A stretch of DNA of 64,000 bases, taken from an uncultured Actinomycetota bacterium. GTDB taxonomy: Bacteria > Actinomycetota > Humimicrobiia > Humimicrobiales > Humimicrobiaceae. Positions within the stretch are counted from its first letter, which is position 1, and each line of letters starts with the position of its first letter. Under the pieces are notes generated by a model. It searched no databases. It saw nothing but the letters and a program-made list of their open reading frames with translations, and was not told the DNA's origin. The position numbers and the translations under genes are program-made. The stretch covers positions 1,260 to 65,259 of the forward strand of contig CAZODQ010000005.1 of assembly GCA_964578625.1 (NCBI GenBank), written 5' to 3'. Shown here one piece after another: positions 8,388 through 41,143 of the stretch.

Positions 8388-8398
8388 GTTTAATAGAG

Positions 8399-9199: not shown

Positions 9200-9257
9200 A
9201 CTACTTTTTTTAATCTTTTAATAAAGTATAATAAAAAAACAAAAACAGGAGGTTTTT

Positions 9258-10346: not shown

Positions 10347-10384
10347 TAAATAGGACGAAGCAGGTCCGGATATTTTAAAACTTT

Positions 10385-11539: not shown

Positions 11540-12526
11540 TTAGAATTTTTCCGGATAGCAGGCTTTCATAGCAGAAATAATCGATTCTTTAAGTCTTCCT
11601 CTACTATACCCCAGCTTTTCCGCAGTATCCGAAGGATCAAAGAACAGATTATGGGTCAAGATGTCGCGCATAAGGTATTTGGCATCAAGGCCGCCTTCCA
11701 AACCTTTTTTCTTCCATTCCTTATTTATCATACTACCGGCTATAACAGCTATAAACCGTGGAATATTTATTATTTTTTTATGCATTCCTACAGTTGAAAA
11801 CATCATATCCAGCATTTCGTTGTATGAGTGGTTTTCATCACCAACGGTATAATGCTTGCCGTGTTCTCCGTACTCCAGAGCTCCTATTATTGCTTCACCG
11901 ACATGCTCTGCTGCAATCATATTTGTCCCACCTTTTGGAAAAAAAATGATTTTACTTTTTATAATACGGTCCAGTAAAACATCCTTCCACAAAGGAATAC
12001 GGTTGGGCATTGAGCCAAATATATAAGGAGGTTCCAGGATCATAACTGCCATTTCGCCATTGCCTGCGGCAACTGCACGCTCTGCCTGTTCTACACGGCA
12101 TTTTATATATGGATGGTGTTTACTCAGCTCTTTTTCAGGCCAGATCCTGTCAAAATATGCAAAATAAGAATTAAGTATAACGCATTTTCTAACTCCTGCC
12201 CTTCGTGCTGCAGTTACGACTTTTTCGCAAGATTCCACAAGTCTTGTATAAAAAAACTCATAAGCGGGTGCAGGCGGTGTGATCCTGTCGTCTGGGCCTA
12301 CAGCATATACCATAGCATCATAACCGGTAAAGTGTTCCTGCAGGTTTTTCTCTGAAAGTTCAAATACGTCACCGTACCGGACATTTACCTCTCCGGGATA
12401 CCAGTCCCCGAGTTCTATGTCGTCAACTGCAAGAGTATCAACAGAGTATCCTCTATCCAGTGCTACAAGTAGTGCGTGGTATCCTAAAAGTCCGGTTCCA
12501 CCTACAATTATGATTTTCATATGCAT
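11540..12526 (-). CDS. NAD-dependent epimerase/dehydratase (extended SDR family)
   Basis: N-terminal Rossmann motif IIVGGTGLLGYH and a length of 328 aa. Confidence 0.6.
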   Translation of the reverse strand: MHMKIIIVGGTGLLGYHALLVALDRGYSVDTLAVDDIELGDWYPGEVNVRYGDVFELSEKNLQEHFTGYDAMVYAVGPDDRITPPAPAYEFFYTRLVESCEKVVTAARRAGVRKCVILNSYFAYFDRIWPEKELSKHHPYIKCRVEQAERAVAAGNGEMAVMILEPPYIFGSMPNRIPLWKDVLLDRIIKSKIIFFPKGGTNMIAAEHVGEAIIGALEYGEHGKHYTVGDENHSYNEMLDMMFSTVGMHKKIINIPRFIAVIAGSMINKEWKKKGLEGGLDAKYLMRDILTHNLFFDPSDTAEKLGYSRGRLKESIISAMKACYPEKF

Positions 12527-12803
12527 CGTTCCTATAAGATTAAGAAAAAGAGTAATGCTGCTACTTTAAATATATAGAGTTTATTTTTTATAATGATTAA
12601 CCTCCAAAGGGATAATTATCTGTTTTTATAATTATACTATTTTTATATTTATTATATAAAAAAGTATGTAGATAAAATATTGATATTCGGAATTATATCT
12701 TAACAAGTGGTAATTAGAAATTATATATTATTTTAAATCCTACTTTTATATAATCTGATAAATATTATAATTATTTTATTGATTTTTATTTTTATACAAA
12801 ACA

Positions 12804-13610
12804 ATGGGTCGGCGGTTACTTAAATTTTTAAAGAAACAAACGTTAAAGGCATTAAAGGAAAAGACTGATTTGATATTGATTGCGGTTTTTATAATCATGA
12901 TCCTGATTTGTATTATAAATAACGCTGTATTGCAGAAAGATTATACGGATGCTGTACAGGGACAACTTGAAAATGCCGGGATTGATAATATAAGCAGCCT
13001 GACTTCTAACAGTGAAGGTTCTACTGAAGCTGATATTGCAGCACCGGCTGATTCAGGTCTTCCGGATGTTGTTGCTGTTGAAGAAATACCGGCAGGAAAT
13101 GACGAATCAGATGAATTAGTTCAAGTACTCGAAGAAGAAGATAATATTATTGTGAAGGGGGATATTATGGAGGAAGACAATTCCTTGGATAATAATCCAG
13201 CCCTTGAAGAAGATCAGGATATTGATTTTAGCAATAGTGATAATTTTAAAATCGAAGTAGATTTAGGAAAACAAAAAGTATTTGTATATTATAAGGAAAA
13301 AATTATAAGAGAAATGGTATGCTCAGGAGGAGCTGAAAGTTCACCTACGCCCACGGGAGAGTTTACAACTTCCCAAAAGATTGAATATGATTGGATAGAA
13401 AGGTTTGATATGGGCGCATACTATTGGGTTAGATTTTACAAAACTTATCTTTTTCACAGCATTCCTTTCGATAAGGAAGGAAATATGATGATGGTGGAAT
13501 ACGAAAAACTCGGAAACCCTGTAAGCCACGGTTGCATCAGGCTGAAAGTGGAAGAGGCAAAATGGTTATATGAAAAGCTGCCTTTGGGAGTAAAAGTACT
13601 TATATATTGA
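12804..13610 (+). CDS. L,D-transpeptidase (YkuD domain) with N-terminal TM anchor and acidic linker
   Basis: The catalytic motif SHGCIRL is near the C-terminus. There is an N-terminal TM helix and an E/D-rich linker. Confidence 0.7.
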   Translation: MGRRLLKFLKKQTLKALKEKTDLILIAVFIIMILICIINNAVLQKDYTDAVQGQLENAGIDNISSLTSNSEGSTEADIAAPADSGLPDVVAVEEIPAGNDESDELVQVLEEEDNIIVKGDIMEEDNSLDNNPALEEDQDIDFSNSDNFKIEVDLGKQKVFVYYKEKIIREMVCSGGAESSPTPTGEFTTSQKIEYDWIERFDMGAYYWVRFYKTYLFHSIPFDKEGNMMMVEYEKLGNPVSHGCIRLKVEEAKWLYEKLPLGVKVLIY

Positions 13611-13678: not shown

Positions 13679-13732
13679 TTGACAAAATAAACACTGGGAA
13701 TATAATTACATTAATATTGAAAATCATTATCA
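13679..13732 (+). promoter_or_regulatory. sigma70-like promoter (TTGACA-16-TATAAT) followed by Fur-box-like 7-1-7 operator TGAAAATCATTATCA upstream of the Fur::NuoE gene
   Basis: ttgaca sits at 13679-13684 and tataat at 13701-13706. tgaaaatcattatca at 13718-13732 matches the Bacillus-type Fur 7-1-7 consensus TGATAATnATTATCA at 14 of 15 positions. Confidence 0.5.
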
Positions 13733-13763
13733 TTATCAATTAATAACTATTAAAACCTGTAAA

Positions 13764-14717
13764 ATGGAGAATAAAAAAAGAGATATTGACGTCTATAAGA
13801 AAAAGATAAAGGATAATGGTTTTAGGCTTACCGGTACCAGAACGGCTGTACTGGACATTATGATTAAAAGTTCCGTAGACTTAGATGCGGAAGAATTATT
13901 TTTCCTATCCCATAAAAAATTCCCCGGAATAGGACAGGCAACGGTCTACCGTACTTTAAAACTTCTGGAAAAAGAAAATCTGGTGGAAAGGACTGGATTT
14001 AAAGACAACAAAGCAAAGTACAGGATAAAGGACAGTAAGGATTTAGGTTTAAGGGATTCTTCTCTAGTGTCAAAAAAAAGTGATGAAGATAAAAGTATAA
14101 AGAAGACAGAGAACAGTCATTCGTTGAAAATTGACCATGAGAATACCTACGGGAGTTACGGAGATATGGAAAGAATAAATGCAATTCAGGATCGGCTTAC
14201 CGGATTGCTCAGTGATTTAAATAAAATAAAAAATAGAAAGGAGCTGGCATTGGAAGATGTAATGAAAGATTTTGGAGAAGTAGATAGAATAGTCGGTAAT
14301 TACCAAAATCAAAAAAGCTGCTTGATACAGATACTTCTGGATGTTCAAAATGAGTATAATTGGCTCCCTAAGCACATTATACTTTACATTAGTAACAAAA
14401 TGGGTATTCCTGTTTCAAATATTTACGATATCACTACTTTTTATAAATATTTTAATTTGGAACCCCGGGGAAAACACTCAATTATAGTCTGCACGGGTAC
14501 GGCATGTCACATCAGGGGAGCAGTGGATCTTCTTCAAAGAATTACTAATGTCCTGGAAATAAAACCAGGAGATACGACCGGCGATTATAATTTTACTCTG
14601 GATACGGTCAATTGTCTGGGCTGTTGTGCGCTGGGTCCCGTGATGATGATTGATAAAAAATATTTTAGCAATCCTTCTATAGTGGAGTTAAAAAAAATAT
14701 TAAAACAATTTAATTAA
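13764..14717 (+). CDS. fusion protein: Fur-family winged-helix DNA-binding domain + linker + NuoE/HndA-type thioredoxin-like [2Fe-2S] domain
   Basis: Residues ~15-95 match the Fur DNA-binding domain (LTGTRTAVLDIM...AEELFFL...IGQATVYRTLKLLEKENLVER...KAKYRI) but lack the Fur metal-binding C-domain. Residues ~190-317 match the NuoE 24-kDa subunit (IVCTGTACHIRGA...VNCLGCCALGPVMMID). Confidence 0.7.
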   Translation: MENKKRDIDVYKKKIKDNGFRLTGTRTAVLDIMIKSSVDLDAEELFFLSHKKFPGIGQATVYRTLKLLEKENLVERTGFKDNKAKYRIKDSKDLGLRDSSLVSKKSDEDKSIKKTENSHSLKIDHENTYGSYGDMERINAIQDRLTGLLSDLNKIKNRKELALEDVMKDFGEVDRIVGNYQNQKSCLIQILLDVQNEYNWLPKHIILYISNKMGIPVSNIYDITTFYKYFNLEPRGKHSIIVCTGTACHIRGAVDLLQRITNVLEIKPGDTTGDYNFTLDTVNCLGCCALGPVMMIDKKYFSNPSIVELKKILKQFN

Positions 14718-14751
14718 AAATGATCGATGTTAACTAAAAGAAAAGCAGGTA

Positions 14752-16671
14752 TTGAAAATGAAAGCAAAAAATAAAAAAATTAGTTCCTTAAAAGATTTAA
14801 AGGAAAAAGCCGGTGAGTTTGAGAAAAAACTTGAAGGATGCACAGTTATTTCAATATGCTCAGGGACAGGATGTATGGCTTATTCCTCTGATGTTATTTA
14901 CAGCGGGCTCAGAAAGGAAATTGAAAAGCAAAGTAATAAAAGTATTAAGAAGATTGTCCTAAAGAGAACGGGATGCCATGGATACTGTGAAAGAGGTCCG
15001 ATCATAGTTATACACCCGCAGGAAATATGTTATCTGGGAGTAAAGGAAAAAGATATACCGGAAATCGTTGAAAAAACTATAAAAGGTGAGATCGCCGAAA
15101 GTCTTCTTTATAAAGATGAACAGGGAAATCCGATAATCAAGGAAACTGATATTCCATTTTATAAGTTTCAGAAAAGGATTATTTTAAGCAATAATTCTAA
15201 GATAGATCCTGCAAGTATTGACGATTATATAAGGATAGGAGGTTACCAGTCTCTGGCGAAGGTTTTAAAACAAATGCACCCCGAAGAAGTATTACAGGAA
15301 GTAAAGAATGCCAATCTGAGAGGCAGGGGCGGTGGCGGTTTTCCAGCCGGTGTTAAATGGGAGACCACCAGAAAAGCTCATGCTGAACCCAAATATGTAA
15401 TAGTCAATGCAGATGAAGGAGACCCCGGCGCTTATATGGATAGGAGTGTACTGGAAGGCAATCCTCATAGTATTTTAGAAGGTCTTACCATAGGAGCATA
15501 TGCGATAGGTTCAGAAAAAGGTTTTATATATGTCAGACAGGAATATCCTCAAGCGGTAGTTAATGTAAATAAGGCGATCAAGCAGGCTAAAGAGTACGGA
15601 TTCCTGGGTAAAAATATATTAGGCTCCGGATTTGATTTCGATATAGAAATCCACCGGGGTGCAGGAGCTTTTGTCTCAGGAGAATCGAGTGCGTTAACAG
15701 CTGCAATTGAAGGTTGTGTCGGCGAGCCAAGGCTAAAATATATAAGAACTGCTGTAAGCGGTTTATGGGGTAAACCAACAAATTTAAATAATGTTGAGAC
15801 CTGGGCTAATGTTCCATTGATCATAAAAAGTGGTGCTGATTGGTTCAGGAGCATGGGGACCAAAAACAGCAGCGGGACGAAAATCTTTTCACTGGTCGGT
15901 AAAGTTAAAAATACAGGATTGGTCGAAGTTCCAATGGGAATCAGCCTCAGGGATATTATTTATAAAATTGGCGGCGGTATTAAATATGATAAAAAGTTTA
16001 AAGCTGTACAAACCGGAGGTCCATCCGGAGGAGTAATTCCTGAAAAGCTGCTTGATCTCCCGGTTGATTTTGATGAGTTGACCAAAGCGGGATCGATGAT
16101 GGGTTCCGGTGGAATGATTGTTATGGATGAATCAGACTGTATGGTAAATGTAGCACATTATTTCCTAAAATTTTTAGCGGATGAATCGTGCGGCAAATGT
16201 GTTCCCTGCAGAGAGGGCTTAAGGCAGATGATTTATATCTATGAAAGGATAATGGAAGGAAAAGGCCGGGAAGAAGATCTGCAGCTTCTGGAAGATTTAT
16301 CGCTGCTGCTTAAGGAAGCTTCCTTATGTGCTCTGGGGAATACTGCACCGAATATTGTACTGACTACTCTAAAGTATTTCAGAGAGGAGTATGAAGCTCA
16401 TATTTTTGATAAAAAATGTCCTGCAAAAGTCTGCAAGTCTTTGATAAGTTATATCATAGATAAAAATAAATGTGCCGGCTGCGGAAGCTGCATGAAGGTG
16501 TGTCCGGTAAATGCAATAAGCGGGGAAAAGAAAAAACCACATGTTATAGATGACGAAATCTGCATCAGATGCGGTTCTTGCATAGAAGCCTGTCCGAGGA
16601 AGTATGATGCTATTGAAAAGAAGACAGGATTAATTGCAGAGAGGGTAAAACAGAGTTTAATCGGAGAATAA
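14752..16671 (+). CDS. NuoF-like NADH-binding flavoprotein subunit (HndC/HydB type) with N-terminal Trx-like [2Fe-2S] domain and C-terminal 2x[4Fe-4S] ferredoxin domain
   Basis: The NAD/FMN site is [14 protein letters not shown] and the N3 cluster site is [12 protein letters not shown]. The C-terminus has [12 protein letters not shown] and [12 protein letters not shown]. The N-terminus has the CSGTGC...CHGYC 2Fe-2S pattern. Confidence 0.85.
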
Positions 16672-16711
16672 ATATTGGTAGATAAATTTATTTAAATAGA
16701 ATTAGAGGTAT

Positions 16712-17335
16712 ATGATTATGAATAATAAAAAAGATAGTTTGTCTGAGAAAAAAATTAATGTAATTATAGATGGTCAAAACATTAAAGTGAATAAAGGTGA
16801 TACCATACTACAGACTGCTGAGAAGACCGGGATTCATATTCCCAAATTGTGTTATCACGAGAAAATAAAACCCCATGGGGCCTGCAGATTATGTATTGTC
16901 GAAGTAGAAAAAAAAGGAAGGTCAAAGATAGTTGCCTCCTGTGCTTATCCTGTTGAAGAGGGGCTTATAATCAATACGGAGAGTCCAAAGGTGGAACTGG
17001 TCAAAAAAAATCTTGTGGAATTATATCTTGCATTATTCCCCTTCAATCCTGAAATAAAAAGACTGGCTAAAAAGTACAAACTGAGCAAAACTAGGTTTAA
17101 AAAAGAGAACAATTATTGCATCCTGTGCGGGTTATGTGTAAGGTATTGCAGGGAAGTAAAGAAAAATAATGCCATAGGTTTTGTAGGTAGGGGTATAAAT
17201 AAAAAAGTTGTTTTCATTCCCGATTCTGCTTATTTCAAGTATTGTGAAAACTGTATGGAATGTATGGATATCTGTCCTACAGGAGTGTTCCCTTCCAATT
17301 ATGGAATAGAGAGAATTCCGCAGATTAGCGAGTAG
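16712..17335 (+). CDS. small iron-sulfur protein resembling the N-terminal [2Fe-2S]/[4Fe-4S] region of NuoG/HndD, with no catalytic domain
   Basis: A 2Fe-2S ferredoxin-like N-terminus (CYHEKIKPHGACRLCIVEVE...SC) is followed by 4Fe-4S motifs (CILCGLCVRYC and CENCMECMDICP). The protein is 207 aa. Confidence 0.6.
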   Translation: MIMNNKKDSLSEKKINVIIDGQNIKVNKGDTILQTAEKTGIHIPKLCYHEKIKPHGACRLCIVEVEKKGRSKIVASCAYPVEEGLIINTESPKVELVKKNLVELYLALFPFNPEIKRLAKKYKLSKTRFKKENNYCILCGLCVRYCREVKKNNAIGFVGRGINKKVVFIPDSAYFKYCENCMECMDICPTGVFPSNYGIERIPQISE

Positions 17336-17394
17336 AAGTAGTCTACTGCAGATTCTTATAAACAGAGTGACATTAAAAAAGACTGCTGCTGGTT

Positions 17395-18294
17395 TTATCT
17401 AAAAAAGAAATCAGCCCATATTTCGATAAATGAGGTATCCATATTTGGTGATTTCTTCTTATTTTTCCACAAATTCTTGAATCTATGATAGTCTTGTGTC
17501 CTGTTGATGTTAAAAAAATTAAGATCATCTATTCCACTTAATTCAAGATGGTAATTTAAAATAGTATCGATATTGAGATAATTAAAAATATCCGATATTT
17601 TATATTTTTTCTTTTCGATATTTTCTTCTAAAATATCCAAACAGTATTTTGAGTACAGCCCGCACAGTACTTCAAAACCTTTTTCAGTTTTAATTATTCT
17701 TGCGGCTTTTGTCCTGTTGTAACCGCTGTGTGCTGATATCGGTATGCTTTCATCTGACTCTTTGATATCAGCTTTTATATTATATATTAATAGCTGTAGT
17801 AATTTATATGAGATAAAAGGCATATCAAATGCGGTAATAATGGCGTAAAAATGGGCTGCACTGGAAAGACCTGTATATATACCGATGATAGGACCTTTGG
17901 CCGGATAACTCCGTAAATACTTTTTAGAGCCGGAAGTATCTGGATTACCAATATTGTTTCCATCCAAGATTATTCTTATGTTGGTATTTATGTCCGGGAA
18001 CATAGGAATTTTTTTACCAAGTTTTTCAGGATTCATTTTTAAATATCTTTTTATTTTGGAAGTATACAGCTTTTTAAAATCATATTTTTCTTGGTATTTT
18101 TTTATTTTTTCCAGTTCAGAAAAGACTATGGGATAGTTGTTAGCGGAAGTACTTATTATGATTTCATCACAAAAAAAACTTAGTTTAAAAATCTGGTCTA
18201 TAAAAAGGGGTACTGAACCGATTTTAATTTTTAATTTATTGAGACCGAATCTGCTCCCTTTTCCCCCTGTTAAAATTATACCTGTCAGATTCAT
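17395..18294 (-). CDS. MobA-like molybdenum cofactor guanylyltransferase domain protein with C-terminal extension
   Basis: The N-terminus (GIILTGGKGSRFG) matches the MobA nucleotide-binding loop. It is co-oriented downstream of fdhD and fdhA. Confidence 0.55.
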   Translation of the reverse strand: MNLTGIILTGGKGSRFGLNKLKIKIGSVPLFIDQIFKLSFFCDEIIISTSANNYPIVFSELEKIKKYQEKYDFKKLYTSKIKRYLKMNPEKLGKKIPMFPDINTNIRIILDGNNIGNPDTSGSKKYLRSYPAKGPIIGIYTGLSSAAHFYAIITAFDMPFISYKLLQLLIYNIKADIKESDESIPISAHSGYNRTKAARIIKTEKGFEVLCGLYSKYCLDILEENIEKKKYKISDIFNYLNIDTILNYHLELSGIDDLNFFNINRTQDYHRFKNLWKNKKKSPNMDTSFIEIWADFFFR

Positions 18295-19118
18295 TTGATT
18301 ATTCTCCGCGAATATGAATAAATATTAAATCTGCCGCTCCTTGCATATCCAATAGAAGTCAGACACATTTTTTTCGCAAGAGTAGCAGCACTAAAAGATA
18401 CAGAAGAATTGGTGACTACAATAGGGATTTGCATTCTGCAGATCTTATATACCAAATCAATACTCAATCTTCCGGTAGTGAATATTATTTTATCCTGGGG
18501 AATCAAATTACTTATCAGCATATAACCTGCGATTTTATCGATGCAATTATGCCTTCCAATATCTTCTGCCATATTAAGAAGATCACCGTTACTGTTAAAT
18601 AAGGTAGCACTGTGTAAACCTCCAAATTCTTTTTTATATTTCTGACGGTTTATAGTCTCTTTATTCAGTTTAAGTATAGTACTGGATTCAACCCTGACAT
18701 TGCTCTTTATCTTCTTCAGGCCTTTTTCTAATATAAGATCATCAATACTGCCGCATCCCGAAGATATAAATCTAGGGTTACTCTGAATTTCTTTTTTCTT
18801 TTTATCTGCAGCGGTTACAACTTCTATTCTTAAAGCCAGATCATTTCTGCTTATAATTTTATTTATATCATGGCTGCATATTTTTAAAAGCTCAATATCC
18901 GAATAATTTTGGATGTAATTGTTATTGACCAGATAACCGACTGTAAGTTCGATCAGGCTGGCGGGGGAACATGAGATTAATACAATATCACGGCTATTCA
19001 AAGAGATTGTTAAAATCAGTTCGAAGGGAATGGTATCGATTAGCTCAGACCTGCCTGAAGAGGCTTTAATTTTTTCGATTTTAATATTTTTACCTAATTT
19101 TGAAGTTTTTCTTCCCAT
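18291..19118 (-). CDS. fdhD: formate dehydrogenase accessory sulfurtransferase FdhD
   Basis: The EDIGRHNCIDK motif, the size and the position next to fdhA all fit FdhD. Confidence 0.75.
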   Translation of the reverse strand: MGRKTSKLGKNIKIEKIKASSGRSELIDTIPFELILTISLNSRDIVLISCSPASLIELTVGYLVNNNYIQNYSDIELLKICSHDINKIISRNDLALRIEVVTAADKKKKEIQSNPRFISSGCGSIDDLILEKGLKKIKSNVRVESSTILKLNKETINRQKYKKEFGGLHSATLFNSNGDLLNMAEDIGRHNCIDKIAGYMLISNLIPQDKIIFTTGRLSIDLVYKICRMQIPIVVTNSSVSFSAATLAKKMCLTSIGYARSGRFNIYSYSRRIIK

Positions 19119-19121
19119 TTA

Positions 19122-21863
19122 TTATATCTTCTTCAAATCAACGGCGCAGACTTTAAATTCCGGGATCTTTGCTTTAGGATCCAATGCAGGATTGGTCAAA
19201 ATATTGGCAGGAGAATCTGCATAATGGAATGGTATAAATACCACTCCTTTTTTGATTCTTGGGCTTACTAATGAAGATGCTGCAATCTTACCTCTTTTTG
19301 ATCTTACTTCTACTCTGTCTCCACTCTTGATTCCGAGATTTTCCGCATCCTCTGAATTGATGTGTACCAGATTTGCAGGTGCGATTTCATTTAAACCTTT
19401 GACTTTACCGGTCATTGTCCTGGTATGAAACTGATACAGGATCCTGCCGGTAGTTAGGATATAGGGATATTCTTTGTTAGTTGTCTCTGCTGGAGGTGAA
19501 TGCTTTACGGGGATAAACCTGCCTTTTCCTCTGCTAAATACATTTGAATGTAAAACACTTGTGCCAGGGTCATTATAGTTTCTGCAGGGCCACTGCAGGG
19601 CTTTCTTTTCAAGTCGGTGGTAGCTTATACCGCCGTAAATAGGAGCAAGGTCGGCAATCTCGTCCATAATTTCGGAAGTATTATTATAATTCATGGGATA
19701 ACCCATCATATTTGACAGCATACAGATGATTTTCCAGTCGGGAATGGCACTGCCAGGCGCATCAACTGCCTTCCTTACTCTCTGGATTCTTCTGTCTGTG
19801 TTTGTGAAGGTCCCCTCTTTTTCAGCAAAACAGGTACCCGGCAGGACCACATCGGCAAATTCTCCCGTTTCGGTTAAAAAGATATCCTGGACCACAAACA
19901 TATCAAGCTTCTTTAGAGATTCAGCTACGTGTAGCAGATCCGGGTCACTGAGCATCATATTTTCTCCCATTACGTAAATAGCCTTTATTCTGCCTGAATT
20001 TGCACCATCGATTATTTCGGTTACCGTAAGACCTTTGGTCGATGGTAAGGTTTTCTTCCATTTCTCTTCAAATTTTAGTTTCAAGTCGTTGTTTTCTACA
20101 GACTGATATCCGCATAACAGATCAGGAAGTGCACCCATATCGCATGCTCCCTGTACATTGTTCTGACCCCTTAAAGGATTCACTCCTGTTCCCTTTCTGC
20201 CGATATTACCGGTCATCATTGCCAGGTCTGCCAGAGCAATGACGTTATCGGTACCACAGGTATGTTGGGTAATGCCCATTGCATAGAAGATGGAAGCATT
20301 TTTAGCAGAACCGTAGACTTTTGCTGCCTTGATAAGATCCTGCCTGTCGACTCCGGAAATCCTTGCAGCTTTTTCCGCGGTATATGATGAAAAACATTTT
20401 ATAAACTCATCGAAATTCTCGGTTCTGTCTTTGATAAATATTTTATCGTATAGATTATTATCATATATCATCTTTGCCAGCCCTAAAATAACGGCTATGT
20501 CCGTACCCGGTTTCTGTCTTAAATGTATGGTCGCATATTTTGTGATGGGAATATTCCGGGGATCAATTACGATCAGCTTAAGCCCGTTTTCCTGAACACA
20601 TCTTATGATCTCATAGCCTATGACCGGATGAGTCTCTGTTGTATTTGAACCTATTATTATTGCAGCATCGGAATACTTTATATCATCGACCGAATTGGTC
20701 ATTGCTCCGCTTCCAAAAGTGGGTATCAAGCCTGTGACCGTCGATGCATGGCACAGCCTTGCACAGTGATCTATATTATTGGTACCTATTACCGCACGGG
20801 CGAATTTGGACATCAGGAAATTTTCCTCATTGGTGCATTTGGCAGAACTTAAGACTCCAATGGAATCCGGACCGTATTTTTCCTTTATTGCGGTGAGCTT
20901 ATCAGAAATGATACCAAGTGCCTTTTTCCAGCTTACACTTTTGAATTTACCTTCTTTTGTTTTTATCATAGGGGATTTTAGCCTCTTGGGGCTGCCCACA
21001 AAGTCCATGCCGAATTTTCCCTTGACACATAAGTTACCCCTGTTTACATGCTTTCCAATTTCAGAGGTAACATTTACAATCTGGTTATCTTTTATATGCA
21101 GGTCTATTACACAGCCGACCCCGCAGTAGGGACAGGTGGTCCGGACTTTTACCGATTCCCAGATACGACCTTTTTTAATATAAGTTTTAGACTGAAGAGC
21201 ACCGACGGGGCAGGTAGAAATACAATTCCCGCATAAAACACAATCTGTTTTTTTTAGCGACTGCTCAAAAGCAGGAACTATTTCGCATTCAAAGCCCCTT
21301 CCGGCATAGCCGATAGCGTTTGCGCCGACAACATCATCACATATCCTTACACATCTTCCGCATAGTATACATTTCGCATTATCTCTTAATATAAATGGGT
21401 TATCCATAAGGACTTTTTTTTCATGCACCTTACCGCGGTAAGTGATATCCTTGATGTTATAAATATAGGCAAGGTCCTGAAGGATACAGTTACCGCAGGA
21501 TTCACAGGTTATACAGTCCAGAGGATGGTCCGATAAGATAAGTTCAAGATTTACTCTGACAAGCTCATTTAGATGGGGGGTGTTTGTTTTAATCCTCATT
21601 CCTTCCCGTACCTTTGTTACACATGAGGCAACCACTTCAGGTATCCCTTCTACTTCAACAAGGCAGAGCCTGCAGGCACCCTGGGGTTTGAGCCTGAGGT
21701 CAAAACAGAGGTGAGGTATAAAAATATTATTGTCCAGACAGGTTTCTAAAATACTTTTTCCCTGTAAGGTATATATTGCCCTATTATTGATGTAGATTTT
21801 AATTTGTTGGCTTATGCTGTCTTTATTTTTACTGATTTCTTTTGATGGTCTTTTTTCTAGCAT
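19122..21863 (-). CDS. fdhA: formate dehydrogenase catalytic (alpha) subunit, molybdopterin-dependent, Cys-type, with NuoG-like N-terminal 2Fe-2S and 4Fe-4S domains
   Basis: The N-terminus has CFDLRLKPQGACRLC (2Fe-2S) plus ferredoxin 4Fe-4S motifs. A molybdopterin oxidoreductase domain follows. The HCARLCHAST segment has Cys at the position that carries Sec or Cys in FdhF. There are no in-frame TGA codons. Confidence 0.85.
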   Translation of the reverse strand: MLEKRPSKEISKNKDSISQQIKIYINNRAIYTLQGKSILETCLDNNIFIPHLCFDLRLKPQGACRLCLVEVEGIPEVVASCVTKVREGMRIKTNTPHLNELVRVNLELILSDHPLDCITCESCGNCILQDLAYIYNIKDITYRGKVHEKKVLMDNPFILRDNAKCILCGRCVRICDDVVGANAIGYAGRGFECEIVPAFEQSLKKTDCVLCGNCISTCPVGALQSKTYIKKGRIWESVKVRTTCPYCGVGCVIDLHIKDNQIVNVTSEIGKHVNRGNLCVKGKFGMDFVGSPKRLKSPMIKTKEGKFKSVSWKKALGIISDKLTAIKEKYGPDSIGVLSSAKCTNEENFLMSKFARAVIGTNNIDHCARLCHASTVTGLIPTFGSGAMTNSVDDIKYSDAAIIIGSNTTETHPVIGYEIIRCVQENGLKLIVIDPRNIPITKYATIHLRQKPGTDIAVILGLAKMIYDNNLYDKIFIKDRTENFDEFIKCFSSYTAEKAARISGVDRQDLIKAAKVYGSAKNASIFYAMGITQHTCGTDNVIALADLAMMTGNIGRKGTGVNPLRGQNNVQGACDMGALPDLLCGYQSVENNDLKLKFEEKWKKTLPSTKGLTVTEIIDGANSGRIKAIYVMGENMMLSDPDLLHVAESLKKLDMFVVQDIFLTETGEFADVVLPGTCFAEKEGTFTNTDRRIQRVRKAVDAPGSAIPDWKIICMLSNMMGYPMNYNNTSEIMDEIADLAPIYGGISYHRLEKKALQWPCRNYNDPGTSVLHSNVFSRGKGRFIPVKHSPPAETTNKEYPYILTTGRILYQFHTRTMTGKVKGLNEIAPANLVHINSEDAENLGIKSGDRVEVRSKRGKIAASSLVSPRIKKGVVFIPFHYADSPANILTNPALDPKAKIPEFKVCAVDLKKI

Positions 21864-21896
21864 TTGAACCTGCTTTTTGCCATTTCTAAATTATAA

Positions 21897-24800
21897 TCAC
21901 ATTGCCATATCAGATAGTGATTTAATCGCTTTTTCTCCGTCTTTGGTCTCTAAGTCACATCTGAGGCAGCGCCTGGCTTCTCTTACAGCTTCCTCTTCAG
22001 TTATATTTAAATTGACTTCATTGAAATTCTTTATTCTATCACCTGCAGGCAGACAGGGTACCATAGGTCTTACTGCTTCTTTGGTTTCTTTTTCCGACGA
22101 TTCGACATAAGGCGGTATGTACCTTGAAGGCCGTGTCAGTTTATATTCTCTTACCAATTCTTTCCCTTTGATATATTTGTCAATCATCTCCGCTGCAATG
22201 TTGCCGGCTGACATAGCATTTATTACAGTACCGGGTCCGGTAACAACATCTCCACCTGCGAAAACTCCTTTCATATTTGTGGCCAGGGTTTCCGGACATA
22301 CTGCTATTGAACCTGTTTGGGAGATTTCCACACTCTTTTTTTTACCGAGACAGTAAAGGTCGGGCTCTTCTCCTATTGCAACGATTAAGTTATCAAGATC
22401 GATGACCGATTCCGAACCTTTAATGGGGATGGGTCTTCTTCTGCCGGTTTCATCAGGTTCACCGAGCTTCATTTTTATACATTTGACTCCTGTGATCTTT
22501 CCGGCTTTGGTCATTATTCCTACAGGTGCTGTAAGGAACTTGATTTCAACCCCTTCTTCTATTGCAGCATTTATCTCTTCCTCGAGCGCAGGCATTTCTT
22601 TTCTTGTTCTCCGGTAAAGTATAATGACTTTCCTGCAGTCTTTGACTCTTAATGCAGACCTGGCCGAGTCTATGGCAGAATTACCGCCTCCGATGATCCC
22701 TACTTTTTTACCTATACTGACTTTTTCATTACATTTTATATCTTTTAAAAAGTCCAGAGCATCGATAACGCCCTCTGCATCTTCGTTGGGAATACATAGA
22801 TTTCGTGATTTATGAGCTCCGGTAGCTATAAATACAGCCTTATGGCTTCCCACCAATTCTTTGAATGATATATCTTTTCCAACCTTTGTGTTTGTTTTAA
22901 TTTCTACACCGGCATTTCTGATATTTTCTATATCCATTTCAAGCACATCCGAGGGTAGTCTGTATTCCGGTATATAGGCAGCCAGTGCTCCTCCGGGGAC
23001 ATCCAACTGCTCAAAAATCGTAACATCATATCCTTTACATGCAAGCCTGTAACCGGCTGTCAATCCAGCTGGTCCCGAACCGATTATAGCTACTTTTTCT
23101 CTACCTTGTTTTTGCTCTTTTGGTCTGAGGTATATTCCTTCCTTCAGTGCATATTCGGTGGCAAACTTTTTAAGTGCTCTAATGGCAATAGGACTGCCCC
23201 ACTTTCCGGTCATACATTTGGATTCACAGGGGTGGTGACATACTCTGGCACAAACAGACGGCAGGGGATTATCTTTGAGGATTATATCAAATGCTTCTCT
23301 GAAACGTCTTGCTGCTATTAAAGATATATAGGTTGAAGCTTCCGTATCGATAGGGCATACATGCTGACATGGTGATGAGATTATCTCCCTGCATACAACA
23401 GCGGGACATTTTTTATATCTCACATGTGCTTCGTACTCGTGGTGAAAATAACAGATTGTATTGATCACGGGGTTTGGAGCAGTCTTGCCCAATCCGCACA
23501 AGGAAGTCTCTTTAATTACTGCTGCAAGTTTTTCAAGCTTTTCAATATCATCTTTTTCTCCCTTACCCTGGGTTATTTTCTCAAGTAATTCCAGCATTCT
23601 TCTGGTACCTATTCTGCAGGGAACACATTCACCGCATGATTCTTCCTGTATAAATTCCATGAAATATCTTGCGAGGTCTACCATACAGGTATCTTCATCC
23701 AGGACTATCATACCGCCTGAACCCATTATCGCACCGATTTCCTTGACCTTTTCATAATCTACGGGAATATCAAGGTATTTTTCAGGTATGCATCCTCCCG
23801 ATGGACCTCCTATCTGTACCGCTTTGAATTTTTTACCCTTTTTTAATCCTCCTCCTATTTTAAAGACAATATCTCTAATGGTCATACCCATAGGTACTTC
23901 GACCAGGCCGACATTGTTAACGGCTCCTGCCAGGGCAAATATTTTTGTGCCCTTACTGGTCTCGGTCCCGATGCTGTTAAACCATTTTGCTCCGTTTAAA
24001 ATTATCTGGGGTATATTTGAAAGTGTCTCAACATTATTTATAAGTGTAGGCATTCCGTAAAGGCCTTCCTGTGCGGGAAACGGAGGTCTTGGTCTGGGCA
24101 TTCCCCTTTTCCCCTCAATAGACTGTATCAGAGCAGTTTCTTCACCGCACACAAATGCACCGGCACCCTGATATATCTCTGCATCGAAACTAAAACCGCT
24201 GCCAAGTATGTTTTTTCCGATAAGACCGTAATCCCTTGCCTGCCTTATAGCATACTCAAGAGTCCTGACTGCAAGGGGATATTCTATCCTTATATACAGA
24301 TAGCCTTTATTTGAACCAATGGCAAAAGCTGCTATTAACATTCCTTCTAGAATGGAATGGGGATCGGATTCAAGCAGGTTTCTATCCATAAATGCACCGG
24401 GATCTCCTTCATCACCGTTGCATATTACATACTTGATCCCGCTTGCTGATTCTGCATTTCTGCAAAATTCCCATTTTATACCGGTAGGGAAACCTGCGCC
24501 ACCCCTTCCCCGCAAACCTGATTCTTTAATGATTTTAATTATCTTTTCGGGACTGCCGGATTCAATAGCCAGGACTAGAGCGGAGTAACCGTCTTTTACA
24601 ATGTAGTCTTCTATCCTAAAGGGGTTGATTTTACCCCTGTTTCTAAGGACTCTTGATTCCTGGTACCTGTAAAAGTTTGCCAGCTCAGAATCTTCTGTTA
24701 TTGGATCAAGTTCTTTCGGTATTATACCGTTATCTATGTGGCTTTTAAATATCCTTTTTACCTTATCACTGTCAAGACTGTGATAGGTGACCGTCGGAAG

Positions 24801-25073
24801 GTTGTATGATTCAACAGTCAGCATCGGTTCAAGGGCGCAGAATCCAACGCACCCTGAGGTGGTAAATTCAATATTGCTTCTTTTTCCGGAGGCCATTTCC
24901 TCTTTGACTGAATTTTGTATTGTTTCTGCTCCTGAAGCTATGCCACATGTTCCGAGATGAACGGTTATCCTGTATTTGTTTTTTCTGCTTGTAAGGACTT
25001 TTTTCCTGTTTAACTCTTCCTTTATATTTTTAAGGTCCTCTTTATTTTTTATTTTCAAAGATTTTTTATTCAA
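21897..25073 (-). CDS. 1058-aa fusion: Trx-like [2Fe-2S] domain + NuoF-like NAD(H)/FMN/[4Fe-4S] flavoprotein + GltD-like (glutamate synthase small-subunit type) Fe-S/FAD/NAD(P)H oxidoreductase domain
   Basis: The NuoF part shows GLRGRGGAGFPTGIKWE and ESCGECVPCRIG. Cys clusters (CPAVVCREIISSPC...CARVCHHPCESKC) are followed by GltD-type dinucleotide folds (VAIIGSGPAGLTAGY and VGIIGGGNSAIDSA). Confidence 0.8.
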   Translation of the reverse strand: MNKKSLKIKNKEDLKNIKEELNRKKVLTSRKNKYRITVHLGTCGIASGAETIQNSVKEEMASGKRSNIEFTTSGCVGFCALEPMLTVESYNLPTVTYHSLDSDKVKRIFKSHIDNGIIPKELDPITEDSELANFYRYQESRVLRNRGKINPFRIEDYIVKDGYSALVLAIESGSPEKIIKIIKESGLRGRGGAGFPTGIKWEFCRNAESASGIKYVICNGDEGDPGAFMDRNLLESDPHSILEGMLIAAFAIGSNKGYLYIRIEYPLAVRTLEYAIRQARDYGLIGKNILGSGFSFDAEIYQGAGAFVCGEETALIQSIEGKRGMPRPRPPFPAQEGLYGMPTLINNVETLSNIPQIILNGAKWFNSIGTETSKGTKIFALAGAVNNVGLVEVPMGMTIRDIVFKIGGGLKKGKKFKAVQIGGPSGGCIPEKYLDIPVDYEKVKEIGAIMGSGGMIVLDEDTCMVDLARYFMEFIQEESCGECVPCRIGTRRMLELLEKITQGKGEKDDIEKLEKLAAVIKETSLCGLGKTAPNPVINTICYFHHEYEAHVRYKKCPAVVCREIISSPCQHVCPIDTEASTYISLIAARRFREAFDIILKDNPLPSVCARVCHHPCESKCMTGKWGSPIAIRALKKFATEYALKEGIYLRPKEQKQGREKVAIIGSGPAGLTAGYRLACKGYDVTIFEQLDVPGGALAAYIPEYRLPSDVLEMDIENIRNAGVEIKTNTKVGKDISFKELVGSHKAVFIATGAHKSRNLCIPNEDAEGVIDALDFLKDIKCNEKVSIGKKVGIIGGGNSAIDSARSALRVKDCRKVIILYRRTRKEMPALEEEINAAIEEGVEIKFLTAPVGIMTKAGKITGVKCIKMKLGEPDETGRRRPIPIKGSESVIDLDNLIVAIGEEPDLYCLGKKKSVEISQTGSIAVCPETLATNMKGVFAGGDVVTGPGTVINAMSAGNIAAEMIDKYIKGKELVREYKLTRPSRYIPPYVESSEKETKEAVRPMVPCLPAGDRIKNFNEVNLNITEEEAVREARRCLRCDLETKDGEKAIKSLSDMAM

Positions 25074-25089
25074 TTAATTGCTTTCTTTA

Positions 25090-25581
25090 TTATTTCCGGG
25101 AATAAATAAGATCCATAACTTCTTTAGGATTGACCTTTTGGTGTATTTTATCATTAATCACAACTGTAGGTGCAAGACCGCAGGCACCAAGGCAGCGGTT
25201 AATTTGCAGCGAGTACTTCCTGTCCGCTGTAGTTTGACCTGGTTTAATTTCAAGTTCTTTTACAATCTTATCAACTATTCTCTTGCCGCCTTTAACAAAA
25301 CATGCAGTACCAAGGCAGACCCTTATATTGTTTTTTCCTCTTGGGATCATTGAAAAGAAAGAATAGAAGGTGGAGACGCCGTAAACATCCTTTTCGGGAA
25401 TACCGAGTACTTTTGCAACTTTTTTCTGGATTTCCACCGGAATAAATCCGATATCTTTCTGGATCGCCTGCAATACTGGTATCAGCGCTCCTTTTTTACC
25501 TTTATATTCTTTTAATGTTTTATCGATTTTTCTGATTTCTTCAGATTTTAACTCATATTTCGGCAGACCGGTAATTTGCAT
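25090..25581 (-). CDS. NuoE-like 24-kDa [2Fe-2S] subunit (FdhG/HndA type), first gene of the minus-strand formate dehydrogenase operon
   Basis: RVCLGTACFVKGG...INRCLGACGLAPTVVIND carries the NuoE Cys pattern. The protein is 163 aa. Confidence 0.85.
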   Translation of the reverse strand: MQITGLPKYELKSEEIRKIDKTLKEYKGKKGALIPVLQAIQKDIGFIPVEIQKKVAKVLGIPEKDVYGVSTFYSFFSMIPRGKNNIRVCLGTACFVKGGKRIVDKIVKELEIKPGQTTADRKYSLQINRCLGACGLAPTVVINDKIHQKVNPKEVMDLIYSRK

Positions 25582-25761
25582 GGTATTCCTTTCAGGAGAT
25601 TAAAGAACAATAATTCAGTAAAACTTTACCATAGATTTATTCTCAAAGATTATAACAAAATATTTTTAATAATTGTAATGTATTTGCTATTATTAAACAT
25701 AGAAAATCTGAAATTATATTTTCTGCAATAAATAAAGGGTCAAACGTCTTATAACAGTATA

Positions 25762-26952
25762 GTGTATTTAAGGAAATTAGAATTAAAAAATTATAGAAAT
25801 TACAGTGATGTAAGCTTAAATTTTGATAAGAATACTGTTCTTATACTTGGAAATAATGGTAATGGTAAAACAAACCTGCTGGAATCTATTCATTATTTAT
25901 CCACCGGTAAGTCTCACAGGACCTACAGCCAGGACGAGATCATCAAATGGGGAAGTGATTGTTCTATAATAAGAGCCCTGGTCGGATCCGATGAAAGCGA
26001 TAAAAAAGACTGCCTTATAGAAATTGAACTGTGCAGGGAAAATAGTATTAAGATAAGAGTCGATGAAATATACTGCAGGAAAAAATCGGATTTTATTTCC
26101 ATTCTTCCTTCGATTATATTTTCTCCAGATGATCTTAAGATTGTAAAATCAGGACCATCAGACAGGAGAAATTTTCTTGATTCAATACTGGAAAGGATAG
26201 ATAAGCAGTATTTCAGGCAGCGCCTGCAGTACAACAAAATCCTTACCCAGAGAAGCAGTTTGATTAAAAGTATTAGCGGAGGGACAAAAGATATTACCGA
26301 TTCGACACTGGAAACATGGAATGAAAATATGGTCAAATATGGGACTGGGATAATAGAGAAAAGGTATAAGCTGCTGTCTGAATTCAGGAACGAGTTTAGG
26401 GATTATGTAAGTAGTTTCTTTAAGGAAGCTGAGGTAGATCTCTTTTATATATTCAGCTGGGAGAGGGGAGATGACTTATACTCATATAACTTCATAAATC
26501 TTTCAAATAGCGGAAGCAGGGAGAAAGATATTTTTTTGGAGGGTGACCTGAAGGATATATTCAGCCGGAAGCTGAAACAAAGCCTGGAAAGGGACCTTAT
26601 TTATAAAACTACGACTGTCGGGCCGCATAGAGACGATTTTGTTATCTTACTGAATGGTAAAAATATAAGGTCTTTTGGCTCACAAGGCCAGCAGAGGATC
26701 GCTTCAATAAGCCTAAAACTTTGTGAGCTGAATATCCTGAAGAGGAGATTTAAAAAAGATCCGGTACTTCTTCTGGATGATGTGTTCTCGGAACTTGATA
26801 TTGATAGAAAAAAGATATTGGTAAAAGCTATCGGCGGCGGCTTTCAGACGTTTGTGACAGCAACGAATATCAGTTACATTGATAAACTGGATCTGGAGTT
26901 TGGAAACAAGTTTTTAATAAAGGGTAATAAAATTGCAGTCTCTGGCTTGTAG
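25762..26952 (+). CDS. recF: DNA replication and repair protein RecF
   Basis: N-terminus MYLRKLELKNYRNY, Walker A GNNGNGKTNLLE, and the conserved downstream synteny with DUF721 and gyrB. Confidence 0.85.
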   Translation: MYLRKLELKNYRNYSDVSLNFDKNTVLILGNNGNGKTNLLESIHYLSTGKSHRTYSQDEIIKWGSDCSIIRALVGSDESDKKDCLIEIELCRENSIKIRVDEIYCRKKSDFISILPSIIFSPDDLKIVKSGPSDRRNFLDSILERIDKQYFRQRLQYNKILTQRSSLIKSISGGTKDITDSTLETWNENMVKYGTGIIEKRYKLLSEFRNEFRDYVSSFFKEAEVDLFYIFSWERGDDLYSYNFINLSNSGSREKDIFLEGDLKDIFSRKLKQSLERDLIYKTTTVGPHRDDFVILLNGKNIRSFGSQGQQRIASISLKLCELNILKRRFKKDPVLLLDDVFSELDIDRKKILVKAIGGGFQTFVTATNISYIDKLDLEFGNKFLIKGNKIAVSGL

Positions 26953-26958
26953 ACCGGG

Positions 26959-27267
26959 GTGTATAATAAGATTATGAAAAATTTTGAAGATATAAGAAGT
27001 ATAATAGGAGATGTCGTAAAAAGATCAAATATGAGACAGAGGTTAAACATATCCAATATCTTTAATCATTGGGAGGAGATTGTCGGTACTGAAATATATA
27101 AAAAAACAAAGCCCGAAAGAATAACCGGGGGAACATTGTATTTATCGGTTTCAACTTCTATATGGGCAAATGAACTGAGTCTCATGTCCGACAAATTGAT
27201 TGAAAAAATCAATTCATTTATCGGTGAAGAAGTAGTTAAAAATATAAGATTTAGGCAAAATCTTTAG
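26959..27267 (+). CDS. DUF721 (YaaB/RemB-like) protein
   Basis: A small protein between recF and gyrB, as in Firmicutes origin regions. The sequence is consistent with DUF721. Confidence 0.6.
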   Translation: MYNKIMKNFEDIRSIIGDVVKRSNMRQRLNISNIFNHWEEIVGTEIYKKTKPERITGGTLYLSVSTSIWANELSLMSDKLIEKINSFIGEEVVKNIRFRQNL

Positions 27268-27464
27268 CCTATTTTAGGCAAATTTGAAGTGAAATATGGT
27301 ATAATATTTAGAGGCTAAAATAGCATAGTTATCAGGCATTTTTTTGGGAAAATATTTACATTTAAGCAAGAAAGGGTAATGGATATCAAAGTATTTTTAA
27401 AGTCTGCTTATTGCCCTTTATCAATATTCTAAAGAGGAAATTATACATTTAAGAGGAGATTTTT

Positions 27465-29369: not shown

Positions 29370-29381
29370 TCGGGAGCATAA

Positions 29382-32942: not shown

Positions 32943-33019
32943 GGGCCTATAGCTCAGTTGGTTAGAGCGCATCCCTGATAAGGATGAGGCCTCTGGTTCG
33001 AGTCCAGATAGGCCCACCA
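32943..33019 (+). tRNA. tRNA-Ile (anticodon GAT), CCA encoded
   Basis: gggcctatagctcagttggttagagcgcatccctGATaaggatgaggcctctggttcgagtccagataggcccacca has cloverleaf features, a GGTTCGAGTCC T-arm and a GAT anticodon. Confidence 0.9.
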
Positions 33020-33035
33020 GTTTTTCACTTCTTGT

Positions 33036-33111
33036 GGGGGTGTAGCTCAGTTGGGAGAGCGCCTGCCTTGCAAGCAGGAGGTCAGCGGTTCGATCCCGCT
33101 CATCTCCACCA
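33036..33111 (+). tRNA. tRNA-Ala (anticodon TGC), CCA encoded
   Basis: gggggtgtagctcagttgggagagcgcctgccttGCAagcaggaggtcagcggttcgatcccgctcatctccacca has the G3:U70 pair diagnostic for tRNA-Ala and a TGC anticodon. Confidence 0.9.
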
Positions 33112-37385: not shown

Positions 37386-37388
37386 ATC

Positions 37389-38426: not shown

Positions 38427-38444
38427 TATTATTAATAACAATCC

Positions 38445-40778: not shown

Positions 40779-40796
40779 TTCTAGTAATTTTTAAAG

Positions 40797-41141: not shown

Positions 41142-41143
41142 TT

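Follow-up and report, generated by a model that had tools for sequence, protein, structure and literature searches.

Closest Described Systems

In enzymes of the Bfu family, the A subunit supplies mid-potential electrons, NAD+ receives a high-potential hydride from the FMN site, and low-potential electrons reach ferredoxin through the C-terminal branch of the B subunit (PMC9304861, PMC10482914, PMC12318220). The family definition treats the C-terminal ferredoxin-type domain of BfuB, with its two [4Fe-4S] clusters, as conserved (PMC9304861). Here we describe two neighbouring gene clusters related to these enzymes in 64,000 nucleotides of an uncultured Actinomycetota bacterium (contig CAZODQ010000005.1, positions 1,260 to 65,259; this whole stretch is referred to as the window). 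The minus-strand cluster is a formate dehydrogenase (FDH) operon whose B subunit, a 1058-residue NuoF::GltD protein, has a GltD-type module in place of the ferredoxin-type domain, and the plus-strand cluster is a trio of genes, the first of which joins a Fur winged helix-turn-helix (wHTH) to NuoE. To our knowledge, the characterised Bfu and HydABC-type enzymes all use ferredoxin as their low-potential partner, and the family is defined by an invariant BfuBC cofactor set.

Several described enzymes resemble the FDH operon in part. Type 1 Fdh-Bfu (Schut et al. 2022, PMC9304861) has the same NuoE-like C subunit, HydB-like B subunit and NuoG-like A subunit fused to a pterin FDH; the B subunit of the window differs from it in that a GltD NADP(H)/FAD module replaces the ferredoxin-type domain. 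The NfnABC/Stn enzymes (S. ovata, C. saccharolyticus and T. sibiricus; 8oh5, 9bov, 9n5u) share the BfuBC core, a NuoG-like wire and GltD, and their GltD is the type most similar to that of the window, including a permuted C-terminal CxxC. These enzymes, however, carry GltD within the A subunit, as an insertion on the mid-potential branch; their pterin domain is dead, and a ferredoxin domain is retained on the B subunit. In the window, by contrast, GltD forms the C-terminus of the NuoF subunit, and an FdhA with intact active-site residues serves as the A subunit, which places the operon outside the NfnABC/Stn group. FdsABG (R. capsulatus 6tg9, C. necator 6vw7) is alike in FdhA, with its Cys-His active site, in a NuoE-like gamma subunit and in FdhD, but the beta subunit of the window is of the Bfu and not the FdsB type and carries GltD in addition; no FdsD was identified in the window's FDH operon. 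Finally, M. thermoacetica's NADP-dependent FdhAB also ties an FDH to NADP(H) through a GltD-like Fe-S flavoprotein, but its beta subunit, as described in the literature, has neither a NuoF/FMN module nor NuoE (PMC5736913).

The trio resembles another system, the WorABCSL "plug" of A. mobile (9mqx; PMC12318220), in which WorABC serves a tungsten aldehyde oxidoreductase and WorA recruits WorS through a Zn-finger and an adaptor helix (PMC12318220). WorA, WorB and WorC are the best or near-best relatives of the three trio proteins.

We found no paper describing a NuoF/HydB::GltD or a Fur::NuoE fusion, including in the supplement of Schut et al., in a literature search of limited reach. Judged by this search and by a search of the PDB, the BfuB::GltD architecture is new; its parts are ordinary and the wiring is unusual. 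The reading that we favour, at a probability of roughly 55%, is that the minus-strand operon encodes an FDH that works without ferredoxin, has connections to NAD(H) as well as NADP(H) and may couple the two, and that it stands beside a Fur-controlled Bfu core whose third substrate is handled by proteins encoded elsewhere.

The Formate Dehydrogenase Operon and Its 1058-Residue Flavoprotein

A previous sequence-only reading of this DNA had reported eight open reading frames (ORFs) in two convergent clusters. All eight are present at the positions and in the order it gave, and their domains are borne out by Pfam and NCBIfam. The minus-strand genes are closely spaced, in the order nuoE, nuoF::gltD, fdhA, fdhD and mobA-like:

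25581..25090, minus strand: NuoE/BfuC-type [2Fe-2S] subunit, 163 aa, the first gene of the operon (PF01257, 4.6e-48; NF005722, 151.7 bits against a cutoff of 141; Cys89/94/130/134)
25073..21897, minus strand: BfuB-type NuoF::GltD, 1058 aa (Pfam Complex1_51K, 6.6e-48; NADH_4Fe-4S, 1.1e-33; Fer4_20; Pyr_redox_2)
21863..19122, minus strand: FdhA, 913 aa (TIGR01591, 861 bits against a cutoff of 666)
19118..18291, minus strand: FdhD sulfurtransferase, 275 aa (PF02634, 2.2e-57; TIGR00129, 146.6 bits against a cutoff of 140.9)
18294..17395, minus strand: MobA-like molybdenum cofactor guanylyltransferase, 299 aa (PF12804 in two stretches, 5–53 and 132–274)

The NuoF half of the 1058-residue protein is closest to B subunits of bifurcating enzymes. 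Residues 36–566 scored 650–674 bits against the solved members (NiFe-HydB 7t2r_B, NfnB 9bov_B and 9n5u_B, HydB 7q4v_B and StnB 8oh5_B) and only 343–412 bits against the non-bifurcating FdsB. The FMN/NADH loops are intact (GRGGAGFP at 189 and CNGDEGDPG at 218–226) and, like the ligands of the N3-type [4Fe-4S] cluster (C480/483/486/526), are invariant in 65 sequences. A His/Cys hinge (H550/C556/C561) is likewise invariant and is found at the same positions in the neighbouring canonical BfuB of the trio (639 aa). The N-terminus forms a thioredoxin-like 2Fe-2S domain of ~80 residues that stays below the Pfam cutoff (22.4 versus 24.8 bits), with ligands H39/C43/C75/C79, position 39 being His or Cys throughout the family. 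The FMN/NADH site with the N3-type cluster, the N-terminal 2Fe-2S domain and the hinge, which mark members of the Bfu family, are therefore all present. The sequence-only reading had called the protein a NuoE-NuoF-GltD triple fusion; the NuoF-GltD part of that description stands, whereas the supposed NuoE part is the N-terminal 2Fe-2S domain, which is ordinary for HydB/BfuB. The only unusual element of the protein is its C-terminal GltD module.

Alignments to the B subunits end at residue 566, where the 2x[4Fe-4S] ferredoxin domain of the solved relatives starts, and the GltD-type module extends from 567 to 1040. Pfam matched no Fer4 domain in the 1058-residue protein, which thus lacks the C-terminal ferredoxin-type 2x[4Fe-4S] domain of the Bfu definition, and no ferredoxin-type domain was found across the FDH operon; GltD occupies that very place. 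The module scored 398 and 333 bits against the GltD domains of NfnA and StnC (9bov_A and 8oh5_C, with 9n5u_A also among the best matches) and 336 and 331 bits against stand-alone NfnL (4ylf_B and 5jca_L), so that the NfnA/StnC type scores ahead or level, and the likeness to NfnB/SudA proposed earlier gives way to this closer one. Its C-terminal "EAVREARRCLRCD" CxxC (C1036, C1039) corresponds, by circular permutation, to the CxxC at the N-terminus of NfnL. These residues join C569 and C573 in the first GltD [4Fe-4S] cluster, as in NfnA and StnC, and C608/612/616/620 make up the second. An FAD motif (GSGPAG at 665, of the GxGxxG form) and NADPH motifs (GGGNSA at 795, of the GxGxxA form, and YRR at 820–822) complete the set expected of a GltD-like NADPH Fe-S flavoprotein module. 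The nucleotide-binding residues among these had been chosen beforehand as the point on which the GltD reading would turn: the nucleotide motifs and all eight cysteines are present, and cofactor ligands and motifs alike are invariant or nearly so in an alignment of 65 homologues. NADPH specificity of the site is inferred from the motif.

An AlphaFold2 model of the whole protein, built from 65 sequences, reached a predicted local distance difference test score (pLDDT) of 88.6 and a predicted template-modelling score (pTM) of 0.81. No PDB chain spans both halves: the top query-normalised TM-score was 0.50, B subunits matching the N-terminal half and NfnA, StnC and NfnL the C-terminal half. An NfnS/PyrK-like small subunit (2Fe-2S plus FAD), the partner found in NfnSL/NfnAB, is absent by Pfam from the eight ORFs of the region. 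By its motifs and alignments, the 1058-residue protein is predicted to be a BfuB in which an NADP(H)/FAD/2x[4Fe-4S] module of the NfnABC/Stn type has taken the place of the ferredoxin domain.

FdhA begins with a complete NuoG-like wire (a 2Fe-2S cluster, a His-type 4Fe-4S cluster and two further 4Fe-4S clusters), followed by the Mo/W-bis(pyranopterin guanine dinucleotide) domain. Its closest solved relatives are the FdsA chains 9wxb_B and 6tg9_A, at ~770 bits. The sequence CARLCHAS aligns to CARVCHSP of R. capsulatus FdsA, which identifies the active-site pair Cys371-His372, and the catalytic arginine motif PLRGQNNVQG (Arg565) is conserved; with the Mo/W-pterin domain, the Cys-His pair and the catalytic Arg, the protein has every hallmark of a metal-dependent FDH alpha subunit of the FdsA type (TIGR01591). 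In several related loci, fdhA is split exactly at positions 371–375, the signature of an in-frame selenocysteine codon, and the FdhA of the window is therefore the Cys variant. The MobA-like protein carries an insertion of ~78 residues (54–131) that separates the two halves of the nucleoside triphosphate-transferase fold, and its length ranges from 262 to 301 aa among relatives; its gene closes the FDH operon also in the related loci L082, L087, L090 and L091. Taken together, the predicted product of the minus-strand operon is a cytoplasmic three-subunit Mo/W-pterin formate dehydrogenase, and the operon fits the soluble, NAD(P)-linked molybdopterin FDH proposed in the sequence-only reading.

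The NuoF::GltD Family in Other Genomes

A protein search returned at least 120 clusters of 1010–1090 aa with full-length coverage and 51–92% identity to the fusion. One genome per species was also scanned with generic NuoF peptide patterns; the matches listed were relatives of at most 55% identity together with many ordinary HydB loci, and close relatives were reached by exact-protein look-ups. Among the matches listed, full-length fusions occurred in metagenome-assembled genomes (MAGs) whose assignments cover more than a dozen phyla; an Asgard archaeon is one of them. The labels of these MAGs were Eubacteriales, Aminicenantales, Desulfobacterales, Armatimonadota, Chloroflexota, Acidobacteriota, Balneolales, Omnitrophota, Actinomycetota, Hyphomicrobiales, Verrucomicrobiota, Planctomycetota, Bacteroidota-type lineages and a Promethearchaeota (Loki) archaeon.

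The neighbours of the fusions were mapped by BLAST and a subset was checked with Pfam. Three partners recur after NuoE and NuoF::GltD: FdhA (L005, L012, L014, L022, L028 and others), a genuine [FeFe]-hydrogenase HydA with its H-cluster domains (L006, L013, L018), and an Fe-S-only short BfuA of 230–250 aa (L002, L003, L008, L015). The last of these loci, from the Promethearchaeota archaeon Loki_b31 (L015, 9478–13806), encodes NuoE, NuoF::GltD and short BfuA, and its modules are for NAD, NADP and Fe-S clusters only; the complex is a candidate transhydrogenase with a domain order permuted relative to NfnABC.

A single clade for all NuoF::GltD fusions was considered and is not what a crude distance tree gives. 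In this neighbour-joining tree of NuoF cores, the fusions are not monophyletic and adjoin ferredoxin-domain BfuBs that have the same partner, and the Nfn/Stn-type loci, with GltD in the A subunit, form a separate clade. The tree suggests that this port has seen more than one exchange between the ferredoxin domain and GltD.

The Plus-Strand Trio and Its Fur Box

The plus-strand genes run, in order, from the Fur-wHTH::NuoE fusion through NuoF/BfuB to short BfuA, and a promoter-like site and a Fur box precede them:

13679..13706, plus strand: sigma-70-type promoter-like site (TTGACA, 16-nt spacer, TATAAT; 12/12 consensus matches)
13713..13737, unstranded: Fur box (AATATTGAAAATCATTATCATTATC), directly downstream of the -10 hexamer
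13764..14717, plus strand: BfuC/NuoE-type [2Fe-2S] subunit with an N-terminal Fur wHTH, 317 aa (PF01475 at 18–91, 1.4e-14; PF01257 at 174–316)
14752..16671, plus strand: canonical BfuB (HydB-type NuoF), 639 aa (Pfam; N-terminal [2Fe-2S], FMN/NADH, [4Fe-4S], hinge, C-terminal 2x[4Fe-4S])
16712..17335, plus strand: short BfuA, 207 aa (Fer2_4 and Fer4_Nqo3; [2Fe-2S] and two [4Fe-4S])

The canonical BfuB carries its cysteines at C36/41/75/79, C480/483/486/526, C556/561, C574–584 and C604–614. Its best solved relative is WorB (9mqx_B, 764 bits), followed by other bifurcating B subunits, with the non-bifurcating FdsB at ~370 bits. The C-terminal half of Fur::NuoE, with cluster ligands C243/248/284/288, has HydC, WorC and NfnC as its best solved relatives.

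Short BfuA has ligands at C47/58/61/77, C136/139/142/146 and C178/181/184/188, and neither a His-ligated cluster nor a catalytic domain. Among solved structures, its best relative is WorA (9mqx_A), a short BfuA of 247 aa, of which residues 4–183 align to residues 14–193; the two share the A1, A2 and A4 clusters, and both are without the His-ligated A3. It differs from WorA in being 40 aa shorter: the protein ends 14 residues past the last cluster motif and is without the Zn-finger and adaptor helix of WorA. A further difference from the Wor system is that the BfuC of the trio carries the Fur wHTH. The 207-aa ORF could have been a pseudogene, a disrupted NuoG fragment; this was rejected, since nine related contigs have orthologues of 205–213 aa behind the same pair of genes, and the relationship to WorA points the same way.

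The trio contains the complete BfuBC core and a BfuA with the A1 and A2 clusters, as expected of a Bfu family member. A catalytic domain or subunit for a third substrate, WorSL-like or other, is encoded with it neither in the window nor in nine related contexts. A tblastn search of the window for the hydrogenase H-cluster, carbon monoxide dehydrogenase (CODH) and acetyl-CoA synthase (ACS) matched only the N-terminal Fe-S parts of FdhA and of the 207-aa protein, in line with the earlier remark that this module has no catalytic partner in cis. From its subunits and cluster motifs, the trio is predicted to be an intact, independent and complete WorABC-like Bfu core.

Only the winged-helix half of Fur is present in the fusion: the PF01475 match spans profile positions 2–76 of 121, so that the N-terminal wHTH is there and the C-terminal dimerisation domain, with its regulatory metal site, is missing. 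In 16 homologues the recognition helix, ATVYR, does not vary. After the wHTH come a linker of variable length, a conserved helix (133–168) and the NuoE fold, and more than 120 homologous protein clusters carry both the Fur wHTH and NuoE domains.

The -35 and -10 hexamers are kept in the aligned upstream regions of relatives. The Fur-box sites at 13713–13737 are the sole matches with at most three mismatches to GATAATGATAATCATTATC in the 64-kb window, against 0.05 expected by chance, and all seven relatives in the alignment retain the motif TGAWAATCATTATCATTATCA. When sites differing from the 19-bp Fur consensus at three positions or fewer were mapped in 11 loci, those of 10 loci fell exclusively in the 150 bp upstream of the Fur-NuoE gene; L085 and L086 match the consensus at 19/19 positions. 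The promoter region of the FDH operon (25582–25761) contains no Fur box or other shared operator. Transcription of the trio is predicted to run through this conserved, putative Fur box, and the binder would be a stand-alone Fur, the fused domain or both.

Genomic Context of the Two Modules

The two clusters converge with 60 bp between them, and the same gene order was found in an independent public assembly (Logan SRR14802572). The nearest named protein relatives come from MAGs of Candidatus Humimicrobiaceae and "Actinobacteria bacterium". Beyond the FDH operon lie recF, dciA, gyrB and gyrA (25762–31814), and the locus is therefore near the replication origin.

The convergent arrangement of trio and FDH operon recurs in L082 and L087, again with a 60-bp gap. 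In L087 (GCA_964415365.1, 12704–18158), fdhA is cleanly absent: NuoE, the fusion, FdhD and MobA are kept, and 30 bp separate nuoF::gltD from fdhD. This absence could reflect a recent deletion, an fdhA located elsewhere, or use of the neighbouring short BfuA.

In other relatives, only one of the modules is found. L089 has the trio on its own, flanked by ykuD and recF, and in L092 and L093 a gene for a FocA-type formate/nitrite channel (11618–12484 and 12030–12920, respectively) lies between the trio and recF, at the position that the FDH operon takes in the window. In the Humimicrobiia-like MAGs of L084, L085/L086 and L088, the trio is directly downstream of CODH/ACS genes (cooS, acsB, acsCD, acsE, cooC), with a divergent stand-alone fur. 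The FDH operon with all five genes occurs without the trio in L090, near moeA, and in L091. Each module thus occurs without the other, so that the two are separable.

The closest homologue of the canonical BfuB (66% identity) is found with a short BfuA in a Chloroflexi MAG (L053, 4165–21539), behind HdrC/B/A-like genes in a CODH/ACS-FDH cluster. Repeated placement of the trio by genes of formate and C1/Wood–Ljungdahl metabolism leaves room for a functional link, and its Wood–Ljungdahl placement recalls Stn, which in S. ovata is downstream of the Wood–Ljungdahl pathway cluster.

A separate observation concerns L090 (17264–21092), from a Humimicrobiaceae MAG, where the five-gene FDH operon is directly followed by nuoA, nuoB, nuoC, nuoD and nuoH; there, the flavoprotein module of the FDH may serve a membrane arm resembling that of complex I.

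Proposed Mechanism and Alternatives

Three substrate sites can be recognised in the FDH, namely the pterin for formate/CO2, the FMN for NAD(H) by homology and the FAD for NADP(H) by motif, and continuous cluster motifs join them. The enzyme would accordingly connect formate/CO2 to NAD(H) at the FMN and to NADP(H) at the FAD, with no ferredoxin involved. GltD would be grafted onto the low-potential branch of a Bfu enzyme, with NADPH taking the role of ferredoxin. At the physiological potentials of NAD (~-280 mV) and NADP (~-380 mV), and with formate at -420 mV under standard conditions (Table 1, PMC9304861), NADH and NADPH, averaging ~-330 mV, would be confurcated to reduce CO2, and in the reverse direction formate would reduce both nucleotides. 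A Nernst calculation shows that a CO2:formate ratio of ~1000 shifts the formate couple to about the same value (~-330 mV), so that confurcation or bifurcation with NADPH in place of ferredoxin is thermodynamically coherent. Such a use of NADPH would also explain why the gating elements specific to Bfu are retained. The trio, for its part, would link NAD(H) and ferredoxin to a third redox partner encoded elsewhere, which may dock at the exposed last cluster of short BfuA and would probably belong to formate or Wood–Ljungdahl metabolism.

Several points weigh against this view. The function of the fusion family is read from sequence only. Standard formate, at -420 mV, reduces NAD+ and NADP+ uncoupled, so that bifurcation is not thermodynamically required and would be sensible only at low formate:CO2 or in the CO2-reducing direction. 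The closest characterised GltD, that of StnC, is simply an entry module, and it belongs to the mid-potential branch, not the ferredoxin branch (PMC10482914). The fdhA-less L087 hints at cross-talk between the two modules, which the favoured model does not predict. As to the family survey, partner frequencies are qualitative, the closest relatives are not among the listed matches of the scan, and the neighbour-joining tree is without support values.

The alternative that survives best is an uncoupled FDH with dual cofactor use or a preference for NADP, in which GltD is an extra electron exit and FMN/NAD and FAD/NADP are independent acceptors. It draws on the same reducing power of formate at standard potentials, on the description of GltD-like subunits as NADP modules of FDH in M. 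thermoacetica (PMC5736913), and on the non-bifurcating FAD of StnC, the closest GltD domain (PMC10482914). Yet an enzyme of this kind would also be a futile NADPH-to-NAD+ transhydrogenase, and the NuoF half counts against it: every Bfu-specific feature is kept (the N-terminal 2Fe-2S domain and the hinge His/Cys), the scores against bifurcating B subunits are ~250 bits higher than against non-bifurcating ones, and GltD is grafted exactly onto the gated low-potential port. We regard an uncoupled enzyme as possible, though not the way we would lean.

The sequence-only reading had proposed a bifurcating or confurcating FDH using NAD(H), NADP(H) and ferredoxin; as a single supercomplex built from both clusters, it would have FdhA feed the trio via short BfuA as well as its own flavoprotein. 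The link of the FDH to NAD and NADP fits the operon, but the operon itself contains no ferredoxin domain, and with the modules separable (the trio without the operon in L089, L084–L086 and L088, the operon without the trio in L090 and L091), one complex from both clusters is not supported by synteny. FdhA, moreover, comes with a whole NuoG-like wire that matches the NuoE and NuoF of its own operon, the 207-aa BfuA is without the partner-recruiting Zn-finger and adaptor helix of WorA (the alignment stops at WorA residue 183 of 247), and the Fur box is on the trio only. What speaks for the supercomplex is the 60-bp convergence in the window, L082 and L087, the formate channel gene after the trio in L092 and L093, the position of the closest BfuB homologue within a CODH/ACS-FDH cluster in L053, and L087, where the FDH operon, being without fdhA, has no BfuA-type subunit of its own and short BfuA is the only one nearby. 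On this evidence, the supercomplex appears unlikely.

Bifurcation at the GltD FAD itself, as in NfnSL, with the electrons of NADPH going partly to the BfuBC core (and on to NAD+ or CO2) and partly to free ferredoxin at the distal GltD cluster, is very improbable: homology to NfnL at 331–336 bits, shared cluster ligands and a distal cluster that could be solvent-exposed would allow it, but the domain is closer to the NfnA/StnC type, whose FAD is non-bifurcating by mutagenesis and structure (PMC10482914), and Pfam finds no NfnS/PyrK-like partner in the region.

Beyond the favoured reading of a ferredoxin-independent FDH beside a Fur-controlled Bfu core, a wider proposal can be put forward, which we consider speculative and rather doubtful in its full form. 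NuoF::GltD may define a ferredoxin-independent branch of the Bfu family with NADPH as the low-potential partner, in which the FDH of the window, and [FeFe]-hydrogenase and short-BfuA complexes elsewhere, would confurcate NADH and NADPH, or bifurcate onto NAD+ and NADP+, at ~-330 mV, and the Fur-wHTH::BfuC of the trio may be a "trigger enzyme" binding the conserved Fur box at its own promoter. If true, the latter would make expression of an Fe-S-rich bifurcating core depend on the assembly of that core or the state of its clusters; with its conserved operator, the fusion is a small and testable example of an enzyme subunit with a possible second role as a regulator. B subunits with an NADPH module would predict a new type of reaction, linked to formate or H2, that couples the pools of NADH and NADPH without ferredoxin, and genes now annotated merely as "NuoF" would be reread in metabolic reconstructions of uncultured anaerobes. 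They would also provide a natural experiment for the debate on Bfu bifurcation, with a gated-branch acceptor that is a covalently attached two-electron flavin and not a diffusible one-electron protein.

Other Features of the Window

A PotABCD-like polyamine ABC transporter lies upstream of the trio (7524–11506); it was tested as a molybdate/tungstate system and rejected as unrelated. An Rfam scan of the window returned two tRNAs only, as adjacent genes at 32943–33108. At 36441–43360, after a gene for a sugar-binding regulator, a full 2-oxoacid (pyruvate or acetoin) dehydrogenase complex is encoded (E1 alpha/beta, E2 and E3), which produces NADH and could be balanced by a nucleotide-linked FDH. 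A catalase-peroxidase of the KatG type (747 aa, 56656–58899) is an unexpected neighbour for oxygen-sensitive Fe-S enzymes; its gene lies in the most GC-rich stretch of the window (0.45 versus ~0.36 elsewhere) and may have been acquired horizontally.

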